A stretch of DNA of 38,183 bases from Candidatus Moranbacteria bacterium CG23_combo_of_CG06-09_8_20_14_all_35_22 (GTDB lineage Bacteria; Patescibacteriota; Minisyncoccia; Moranbacterales; UBA2206): the NCBI GenBank assembly GCA_002772115.1, contig PCRW01000068.1, positions 1 through 38,183 of the forward strand. Reading direction: 5' to 3'. Below the pieces are notes generated by a model. That model was not told the DNA's origin and made no database searches. It saw only the letters and a list, made by a program, of their open reading frames with translations. Shown in pieces: positions 13,315 to 36,254 of this stretch. A program made the translations under genes and the position numbers. Each line of letters begins with the position of its first letter. Position 1 is the stretch's first letter.

Positions 13315-13916
13315 AATTTTTTTATTTCTTCAAAAACACTTTCTTTATTTTGATTGCCGTCAATTTTTTTCATATTCCAAAAGGAAAAATTAGCGTCATA
13401 CAATTCTTTTTTCTTTTTCAAATACTCCATTCCTTGATCAGGTTTTCGTTCGCGAGACATAATGATTTGCGGATCAGTTTGAAGATAGATCGCCAGATTT
13501 GGCTTCCTAACATCCGATGTTAGGAGTACTTTCCTAACATCGGATGTTAGGAGCGAAAGGTATTCAATATTCACAATGCTGTCATAAAAATATCGATCAC
13601 TTAATATATAATCAAATTTTTCTTTTTCCAATTTCTTGTATAATTTTTTAAAACGCCAAAGATCAATCATTAAAAATATTTTTCGTAAAAATATTTGAAA
13701 AAAATTGGCACGGATAACGCTTTTTTCTTTCTTGGACATTCGATGTCCAATTGGACATCGAATGTCCAAGAGACAACTAATTTTTTTAGCAAGGCCAAAC
13801 TCAATGGCATGAAAATAAAAGACCCGTTTATTTTGGGATTTTAGATATTCTTTTAGTAATTCTATTTGAGTGGATTTTCCAGAGCCATCTAGGCTGGAGA
13901 TTGTGATTAATTTCAT
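13302..13916 (-). CDS. Tmk-like P-loop NMP-kinase-fold protein carrying two palindromic in-frame inserts
   Basis: P-loop SLDGSGKSTQ, SDRYFYDS (DRY-type motif) and PNLAIYLQTDP (compare Tmk PDLTLYLD). The TMP-binding REPGGT-type motif is not visible, so true thymidylate kinase activity is uncertain. Confidence 0.6.
   Translation of the reverse strand: MKLITISSLDGSGKSTQIELLKEYLKSQNKRVFYFHAIEFGLAKKISCLLDIRCPIGHRMSKKEKSVIRANFFQIFLRKIFLMIDLWRFKKLYKKLEKEKFDYILSDRYFYDSIVNIEYLSLLTSDVRKVLLTSDVRKPNLAIYLQTDPQIIMSRERKPDQGMEYLKKKKELYDANFSFWNMKKIDGNQNKESVFEEIKKLCQI
13504..13557. repeat. Tandem 27-nt repeat (x2), each unit a 9-bp-stem hairpin, in-frame in the Tmk-like CDS
   Basis: ttcctaacatc[c]gatgttaggagtact / ttcctaacatc[g]gatgttaggagcgaa. 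The two hairpins differ only in the central loop base, so they are reverse complements of each other. They encode LLTSDVRKV-LLTSDVRKP. Confidence 0.9.
13731..13770. repeat. 40-nt perfect nested palindrome in-frame in the Tmk-like CDS
   Basis: cttggacattcgatgtccaa|ttggacatcgaatgtccaag. The whole segment is self-complementary and each half is itself an 8-bp-stem hairpin. It encodes ...LLDIRCPIGHRMS... Confidence 0.9.
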
Positions 13917-24698: not shown

Positions 24699-24705
24699 GA
24701 AGGTT

Positions 24706-24752
24706 AAATTCGAGGTTTCACCTCGAGTAACTCGAGGTGAAACCTCGAATTT
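24706..24752. repeat. 47-nt perfect nested palindrome (double hairpin), intergenic
   Basis: aaattcgaggtttcacctcgagt-a-actcgaggtgaaacctcgaattt. Each arm contains the hairpin cgaggt-nnn-acctcg. It lies between the ligase-like stop (24698) and the GT4 start (24765). Confidence 0.9.
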
Positions 24753-24764
24753 ATTTAAATCATT

Positions 24765-36224: not shown

Positions 36225-36254
36225 TTACTACCGTATTCTAGTATACGGTAGTAA
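36225..36254. promoter_or_regulatory. Perfect 12-bp inverted repeat (6-nt spacer) between the Rrf2 gene and nifS: candidate operator or attenuator hairpin
   Basis: ttactaccgtat-tctagt-atacggtagtaa, followed by the direct repeat aagaatattt(t)aaa x2. Confidence 0.5.

Follow-up and report, generated by a model that had tools for sequence, protein, structure and literature searches.

A putative REP doublet tied to a RAYT-like transposase in a variable loop of a Tmk-like kinase gene of Candidatus Moranbacteria

Introduction

Why should the gene of a kinase carry, in frame, two adjacent hairpins that are reverse complements of each other? The question is raised by a 38,183-nt contig of Candidatus Moranbacteria bacterium CG23_combo_of_CG06-09_8_20_14_all_35_22 (PCRW01000068.1, assembly GCA_002772115.1; this whole stretch is called the window here), in which the gene of a Tmk-like P-loop kinase contains a 48-nt segment of this kind. 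A first-pass annotation, made from the letters of the window, had described it as tandem hairpin units. We consider it probable that the segment is a doublet of repetitive extragenic palindromic (REP) sequences, resembling a REPIN, that belongs to a dispersed CCTAACAT-NNN-ATGTTAGG family, is tied to a Y1/HUH transposase similar to the REP-associated tyrosine transposases (RAYTs), and landed in a tolerant loop of the kinase. REPINs are REP doublets that form hairpins and occur with RAYT transposases (Bertels and Rainey 2011, PMC3116915, PMC3337134; Nunvar et al. 2010, PMC2817692).

Results

The doublet consists of two inverted arms around a short spacer (Table 1). Each arm forms a hairpin (10-bp stem, 1-nt loop), and the period is 27 nt. 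The first-pass annotation had the two hairpin units and the period right, but its 9-bp stem was one pair too short, since the flanking T/A adds a tenth. It had also taken unit 2 as the reverse complement of unit 1. This is borne out over 21 nt at 100% complementarity, the arms differing from each other only at the loop base (C versus G). For the paired units, "inverted" is a better word than "tandem". Two folds are open to the 48 nt, one 21-bp hairpin or two 10-bp hairpins, and the minimum-energy DNA fold is the single long hairpin. The DNA fold of the doublet region has an energy of -25.4 kcal/mol compared with -4.5 +/- 1.9 for shuffles (z = -10.9). The 21-nt unit, allowing up to 3 mismatches, has 4 strand-wise matches in the window and 0 in 100 window shuffles. 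Together, these two results exclude chance as the source of the doublet.

The genome to which the window belongs (called G000 here) comprises 906 kb in 82 contigs with a GC content of 0.35. A search of it for further copies of cctaacatc, which the first-pass annotation had proposed, was run and found dispersed copies. There are 12 CCTAACAT-NNN-ATGTTAGG hairpins at 11 loci, compared with 0 for the reversed control pattern, and the canonical copies reach CTATCCTAACAT-TCG-ATGTTAGGATAG. Five of the 12 lie in open reading frames (ORFs): two in the Tmk-like gene and one each in ValRS, a transposase and a small ORF. The foot of the copies varies. It is CTAC...GTAG only in the copy that precedes the transposase gene, CTAT...ATAG in most copies and TTCC...GGAG in the Tmk doublet. 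The family was counted in 8 of 41 related genomes. It is present in six of the eight other genomes of the genus and in the more distant G027 (11 copies); a search for the pattern in the 32 other relatives found no copy.

This family is not the only one in the genome. Perfect hairpins with a stem of at least 12 bp number 98, where about 4 are expected from a third-order Markov model. Adjacent hairpins with identical stems were found 19 times; 17 of these pairs are inverted, and the only direct one is of low complexity. Two doublet families have seven copies each. Long ORFs make up 90% of the genome, while 68 of the 126 hairpins with a stem of at least 11 bp (54%) lie in them. Hairpin elements are thus under-represented in genes, though far from excluded.

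Seven matches to the Y1/HUH family PF01797 were found in G000. One of them, an ORF on contig C73, scores 34.8 bits with Pfam Y1_Tnp (cut-off 23), and NHYH(L/F)I and Y153 are invariant in an alignment of the transposase paralogues. A profile search of the PDB returned E. coli TnpA-REP (4ER8) as the best match, a weak one (E = 0.0058), and a single-sequence search of the PDB with the same protein gave no match at E<=0.01. As the protein lies above the Pfam cut-off and below that of the NCBIfam REP_Tyr_transpos family, and matches TnpA-REP by profile only, we assign it, on sequence grounds, to a divergent RAYT-like subfamily that appears distant from the characterised RAYTs. The C73-type subfamily is widespread in Patescibacteria, with at least 559 relatives confirmed by tblastn.

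The C73 gene is flanked at both ends (within 10-30 nt) by mutually inverted CTA[CT]CCTAACAT-CGA/TCG-ATGTTAGG[GA]TAG hairpins. The upstream hairpin, CTACCCTAACAT-CGA-ATGTTAGGGTAG, is 10-30 nt away, and the downstream copy, with the loop TCG, is 2 nt away. A third CCTAACAT hairpin lies in frame within the coding sequence of the transposase and codes for FFLTSNVRKK. Orthologues of the C73 gene in G008 (94% identity), G006 (83%) and G027 (55%) are bracketed by the CCTAACAT hairpin too, and these are the genomes richest in CCTAACAT copies. In G005, which has 4 CCTAACAT hairpins, no C73-type transposase was found; this fits relic copies. Three paralogous transposase genes of G000 each go with a different hairpin family, and a flanking hairpin is present in 62 of 69 full-length transposase homologues from other Patescibacteria. 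One of these genes (L081) is flanked by the TTGGACAT family, which also supplies a second doublet in the Tmk-like gene (site B, Table 1). Another (L072) carries a CCTAAGGT doublet, as does the Tmk loop of G008 and G001.

Hairpins also lie inside the coding sequence in 47 of the 69 homologues, and in 30 of the 47 the internal and flanking hairpins have a common core (loci L068-L147). They gather at two fixed positions, 11-40 residues before the HUH motif and 60-79 residues after it. We know of no prior description of a REP inside the coding sequence of its own transposase. Cis-preferential insertion or self-regulation might account for the arrangement.

We next considered how the two arms change together. 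Six doublets were aligned, from G000, G006, three metagenomic alleles and one from G027, and compared with 500 shuffles. When the alignment is read as the long inter-arm hairpin, 99.2% of the cells are paired and 5 pairs (10 cells) show compensatory change. None of the 500 shuffles reached the observed number of compensated cells, percentage paired or covariation score, and 2 reached the number of compensated pairs. Read as two short hairpins, 96.7% of the cells are paired and 2 pairs (4 cells) show compensatory change, values reached by 19 of the 500 shuffles for the same three measures and by 324 for compensated pairs. The conserved structure thus appears to be the long 21-bp hairpin between the arms and not the two short ones. 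The loop triplets of the allelic doublets are always reverse-complement pairs (CCG/CGG, TCG/CGA, TGA/TCA). In the L063 allele, arm 1 has changed from T to C and arm 2, in mirror image, from A to G, which breaks both small hairpins and keeps the long one. The loop triplets and the mirrored change mean that the arrangement is inverted and not a direct tandem repeat. Judged by these alleles, the doublet changes as one unit with two-fold symmetry, in the manner of REPINs. With only six sequences, the symmetry of the arms is explained either by selection on the long hairpin or by template switching between the arms.

The host protein matches the Pfam family Thymidylate_kin (E = 2.8e-11), and its best-named homologues are from Candidatus Moranbacteria/Moraniibacteriota. 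Across the doublet, the translation of the minus-strand ORF reads ...NIEYLS-LLTSDVRKV-LLTSDVRKP-NLAIYL..., so that the frame is kept and LLTSDVRK is duplicated, as the first-pass annotation had stated. An AlphaFold2 model made with 74 homologues as input has a predicted local distance difference test score of 85, and solved dTMP kinases match it at a template modelling score of about 0.7. The doublet-coded residues 121-137 are modelled between helix 110-120 and strand 141-146, in agreement with the loop that had been proposed right before PNLAIYL. In the block 121-130 the confidence falls to 66, as would suit a connecting segment, and the doublet-encoded segment has no conserved residues.

Read through the doublet, each strand has two frames that are interrupted by two stop codons each and one open frame, which gives LTSDVR on both strands. 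This sole stop-free frame per strand explains why the frame is preserved in the Tmk doublet. All five coding copies of the CCTAACAT family use the same L-T-S/F-D/N-V-R frame. With stops in the other two frames, selection lets only one third of insertions survive, in either orientation.

We compared the loop in 37 Tmk-like genes from related genomes and counted as a strong palindrome any loop with a folding energy of -17 kcal/mol or stronger. Fifteen of the 37 have one (-17 to -46 kcal/mol), from at least eight families. CCTAACAT doublets are present in G000 and G006, CCTAAGGT doublets in G008 and G001, a single TTGGACAT hairpin in G022 and GTAGGGAACGC...GCGTTCCCTAC in G003, in addition to several longer REP doublets. 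The remaining 22 loops fold at -0.3 to -12.6 kcal/mol and are unrelated in sequence. A 16-residue loop, SKKDKxLPCEKFIxKP (in the form KKDKRIPCEKFIS), is common to seven genomes of different genera and is probably ancestral. The comparison with orthologues that the first-pass annotation had called for thus yields unrelated short loops, other palindromes or a doublet of the same family, and no hairpin-free version of the same segment. The Tmk-like protein has at least 939 homologues, and in 120 from the protein database the loop was sorted by peptide motif. There are 8 CCTAACAT-type doublets, 1 singlet, 7 TTGGACAT singles, 3 CCTAAGGT doublets and 23 ancestral loops, and about a fifth or more of the 120 have no palindrome at this position.

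Gene trees were made with the variable loops masked; the genes are short and the resolution is weak. The identity of the element at the loop is discordant with the gene tree: G008, nearest to G000, has another family, and the supported clade (G006,(G001,G003)) has three different families. CCTAACAT-doublet alleles occupy at least five places on the tree of the 120 homologues. A single ancestral insertion for all of them is disfavoured by this scatter, although the poor resolution means that it is not firmly excluded. At least eight distinct families imply many independent events at one loop, and we regard the Tmk loop, from these comparisons, as a likely recurrent landing site of hairpin elements.

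Two further observations concern this gene. An AT-rich repeat peptide, ENCxIENWKFIENWKLKIEN, occupies the loop in nine homologues (P0010, P0011, P0019, P0056, P0059, P0070, P0086, P0092, P0096). In the one case with DNA (G002, -2.8 kcal/mol) it is without strong hairpin potential. This repeat is of another kind than the hairpin elements that share the hot spot. G027, a genome of another family, has a CCTAACAT doublet with a 5-nt spacer outside, not within, its Tmk-like gene, about 25 nt downstream (C8:13068-13110; locus L044 337-377).

Filled and empty sites can also be compared in other genes. In LeuRS of G000 (C31:9230-9278), a TCGAGGTTTCACCTCGAG/CTCGAGGTGAAACCTCGA doublet forms a clean insertion of 45 nt, or 15 codons, between AAA and ACT. 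The site is empty in four relatives (loci L165-L168), and there is no target-site duplication at the AAA/ACT junction. This clean insertion of a doublet of a sister family implies that doublets move as units. A second copy of the LeuRS-type TCGAGGTTTCACCTCGAG/CTCGAGGTGAAACCTCGA doublet lies in the window at 24705-24753. In ValRS, the site of the CCTAACAT copy has eight unrelated codons (ELVEKISK) in four relatives (loci L160-L164), and in G005 the hairpin of G000 is present with one mismatch. The element in LigA resembles that in ValRS and is replacement-like. We sought an insertion target motif in the filled/empty pairs, and none could be derived; the junction is clean in LeuRS alone, and ValRS, LigA and Tmk are replacement-like.

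The exact Tmk-like protein is present on 22 public contigs. Its coding DNA is the same in eight of nine independent assemblies, and the ninth has one substitution, at position 27. These nine come from seven JGI samples (3300005235, 3300004239, 3300004149, 3300025022, 3300025288, 3300024995 and 3300004238) and two ENA samples (ERZ17912254 and ERZ27293362), made with SPAdes- and MEGAHIT-style assemblers; they were picked by exact protein identity, so that length variants would not show among them.

The features discussed here are collected in Table 1. The Tmk-like gene has an RtcB gene on one side and a polysaccharide flippase gene on the other, and this synteny is conserved. There are three Thymidylate_kin-type genes in G000, the window gene with 41 bits, C66:6184-6723 with 59 bits and a third at C63:1549-1722. 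As the window gene is not the best-scoring of the three, "Tmk-like paralogue" is the apt name for it, and it may not be the housekeeping tmk.

Table 1. Coordinates of the doublets in the Tmk-like gene and of the RAYT-like transposase genes (positions are those of the window unless a contig is given)
Feature	Position	Strand	Description
Tmk-like P-loop kinase paralogue, 204 aa	13302..13916	-	doublet codes residues 121-137 (LLTSDVRKVLLTSDVRK)
Whole REP doublet (REPIN-like)	13505..13552	.	48 nt: two inverted 21-nt arms and a 6-nt spacer
Arm 1	13505..13525	.	TCCTAACATCCGATGTTAGGA = TCCTAACATC-C-GATGTTAGGA; REP hairpin of the CCTAACAT family, CCG loop variant
Spacer GTACTT	13526..13531	.	codes K-V-L with adjacent bases; 1-7 nt and variable in sequence among allelic doublets
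Arm 2	13532..13552	.	TCCTAACATCGGATGTTAGGA = TCCTAACATC-G-GATGTTAGGA; exact reverse complement of arm 1
Second REP doublet, site B of Tmk-like gene	13730..13771	.	TTGGACAT-TCG/CGA-ATGTCCAA family; perfect 42-nt palindrome, codes LLDIRCPIGHRMSK
RAYT-like Y1/HUH transposase ORF, 229 aa	G000:C73:5579-6268 (outside the window)		HUH motif NHYHLIL and Tyr in SAYVN
Paralogous RAYT-like transposase genes	G000 C38:607-1275, C49:1500-2135, C72:3873-4586		own REP inside coding sequence

The doublet at site B is TTGGACAT-TCG-ATGTCCAA joined to its own reverse complement. It is common to G000 and G008, and the other orthologues are without it; many of them have a CxxC...C loop (FRNKYCLICRLTGKCK) at this position instead. 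The nearest relative of G000 varies by gene. For the Tmk-like gene, ThrRS and LigA it is G008 (80-90%). ValRS is nearest to G005 (71% versus 60% for G008), and LeuRS has 49% identity to G008 and 76-79% to other relatives. Such sequence comparisons hint at gene exchange or paralogy within the genus. The window also contains, at 36225-36254, one of five copies of the palindrome TTACTACCGTATTCTAGTATACGGTAGTAA, all of them outside long ORFs (the others are at G000 C13:4886, C3:17485, C3:17962 and C5:14233). Instead of a REP, this palindrome could represent an operator or a site of the terminator type.

Discussion

How would a hairpin doublet have come to lie in this gene? In the account that we favour, the transposase would move the hairpins as single-stranded DNA. 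One hairpin element would have landed in a variable loop at the surface, which joins helix 110-120 to strand 141-146, and, over time, taken its place. The copy would survive there, sitting in the only stop-free frame of three, which is the same on either strand, and presumably adding a short hydrophilic peptide (LLTSDVRK twice) to a segment that tolerates almost any sequence.

Several observations weigh against this account. No transposition event of the CCTAACAT family has been directly seen. The C73 protein scores 31 bits with NCBIfam NF047646 REP_Tyr_transpos, where the cut-off is 80, and is not a RAYT equivalog. The family has only 12 copies, which is low beside classical REPs, and the Tmk copy is without the (G/A)TAG foot that the transposase-flanking copies have, so that it may no longer be mobile. 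All the other CCTAACAT loci in G000 are single hairpins, and given these the Tmk doublet could have formed in place. The footprints also look like replacements. The Tmk element spans 16-17 codons where the empty alleles have 13-14 unrelated codons, and the ValRS copy (G000:C64:17483-17501, ILTSDVRK) replaces exactly 8 codons with no change in length. Peel-and-paste transposition alone does not predict such footprints. Their simplest explanation would be that the element was inserted and adjacent loop codons were later lost under a length constraint. We think it improbable that loops such as this one are instead repeatedly rewritten by cassette-like replacement at pre-existing hairpin sites, as a form of loop diversification, with REP-based self-regulation of the transposase. 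If true, both the cassette-like replacement and the self-regulation would be outside the current REPIN model.

The least credible of the other origins is replication slippage that copied a 27-nt unit in direct tandem orientation, after which a single loop base changed from C to G; we consider it, like an assembly artefact, very improbable. Compared as direct repeats, the two units of G000 do agree at 20 of 21 positions, and one substitution would do. The allelic doublets have asymmetric 3-nt loops (TCG/CGA, TGA/TCA) and the mirrored L063 mutation, both of which are marks of inversion, and a simple direct duplication is rejected on these grounds; the preponderance of inverted pairs among the double hairpins of the genome (17 of 19, with one direct pair of low complexity) points the same way. 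A fold-back artefact of assembly is ruled out by the matching DNA of the nine independent JGI and ENA assemblies, which different assemblers produced. A doublet made in place deserves more weight, although we still hold it to be rather unlikely. Here a single REP lay at the loop and an inverted copy was added locally by fold-back or template-switch synthesis, a mechanism known to perfect quasi-palindromes; on this view, too, the segment would be a REP of the CCTAACAT family. Single hairpins are found at 10 of the 11 family loci in G000, single copies flank the transposase gene, and one homologue (P0047/L067) has a single, decayed copy at the same site. Template switching would also account for the reverse-complement loop triplets and for the mirrored arm mutations of L063. 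Yet CCTAACAT doublets occur elsewhere in G027 (at C33:6413-6455 and just 3' of its tmk), and other families of G000 clearly move as doublets, as seen in the 45-nt insertion in LeuRS and in the two doublet families with seven copies each. Moreover, at least eight scattered Tmk alleles have doublets and only one has a singlet.

A benefit to the host could also have kept the hairpin, whether as an RNA stem that tunes translation or mRNA decay in the RtcB / Tmk-like / flippase transcript or as a useful peptide repeat. The loop is filled in 15 of 37 orthologues, where roughly 0.4% would be expected for a random 50-nt coding stretch, and the complementarity of the arms is maintained through compensatory change. 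REPs of other bacteria are reported to influence the stability of mRNA and termination (Di Nocera et al. 2013, PMC3733652). Nevertheless, no palindrome fills the loop in 22 of the 37 orthologues, nor in about a fifth or more of the 120 homologues, and the occupants come from at least eight unrelated families that differ in length and peptide. The same families are also found in intergenic DNA and in unrelated genes (ValRS, the transposase), and the model is less confident over the encoded segment, in which no residue is conserved. We doubt a function for the host and favour a mobile, selfish REP doublet, which would be largely neutral for the kinase.

Elements of this general form are known from other organisms. 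Ogata et al., in 2000, reportedly described the Rickettsia palindromic elements (RPEs) as "selfish DNA in protein-coding genes". RPEs are in-frame palindromic repeats in genes that are translated at surface segments compatible with the fold, and their families are specific to Rickettsiales. To our knowledge, RPE-1 elements measure 100-150 bp and have no known transposase. The Tmk doublet is like them in being in frame and in a low-confidence connector of a dTMP-kinase fold. It differs in having 21-nt units arranged as a 48-nt doublet, a Patescibacteria host and a candidate transposase. Paquin, Laforest and Lang are said to have described, in 2000, double-hairpin elements of Allomyces mitochondria that are short, mobile, and both intergenic and intragenic. 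These share with our family the two adjacent hairpins and the presence in intergenic DNA and in genes, but they belong to a fungal organelle, have no known transposase and are unrelated in sequence.

The closest likeness is to REPINs and their RAYTs. As in that system, two inverted short palindromes can fold as one long hairpin, and the family is dispersed in the genome. The Y1/HUH transposase gene lies between inverted copies of the same palindrome, and family and transposase are co-inherited within the genus. A transposase gene flanked by inverted REPs is the REPtron layout, which is described for RAYTs (PMC2817692; PMC3733652). There are also differences. The Tmk doublet, at 48 nt with a 6-nt spacer, is far more compact than most REP dimers on record, whose spacers measure 20-100 bp. 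Copy number is 12 here and a hundred or more there. Several paralogous transposases each have a family of their own, where a RAYT is usually present as a single copy, and characterised RAYTs are only distant relatives of the transposase (31 versus 80 bits). The host is a Patescibacteria bacterium, and a full-text literature search found no paper tying RAYTs to Patescibacteria. Finally, the Tmk copy is intragenic where the norm is extragenic, although intragenic REPs are documented for the class (PMC3733652).

Intragenic GTAG/CGTC REPs are described from several species, more than half of them as dimers or groups coding for 20-30 amino acids; some dimers are only 1-2 bp apart, and each REP family has REPtrons of its own (Di Nocera, De Gregorio and Rocco 2013, PMC3733652). 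Our elements are alike in forming closely spaced, coding dimers within genes and in having family-specific REPtrons. They differ from what is described there in that the CCTAACAT family mostly ends in ATAG and not GTAG, and in that the Tmk copy is without such a foot. Neither the repeated filling of a single loop by different families nor a REP within the gene of its transposase came up in the passages of that paper to which a term search led (PMC3733652). Taken together, the sequence comparisons suggest that the Tmk element works like a REP doublet (REPIN) with a RAYT-type transposase and, by most of the features tested, is one. It would be a known kind of element in a host group and a gene site without earlier description.

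Conclusion

The REP doublet in the Tmk-like gene suggests that REP/REPIN-type elements and divergent RAYT-like transposases play an active part in the small genomes of Patescibacteria, where genes are densely packed. As about 90% of the DNA is coding, such elements would come to be translated within genes of a housekeeping type. In annotation, this would explain odd repeated peptides in proteins of the candidate phyla radiation (CPR), such as LLTSDVRK, TWTSNVQV and PLASQRLNL, and would mark loops that tolerate insertion. The many families in one loop and the REPs in transposase genes provide testable handles on how REPs choose their targets, a question that is open for REPINs generally.

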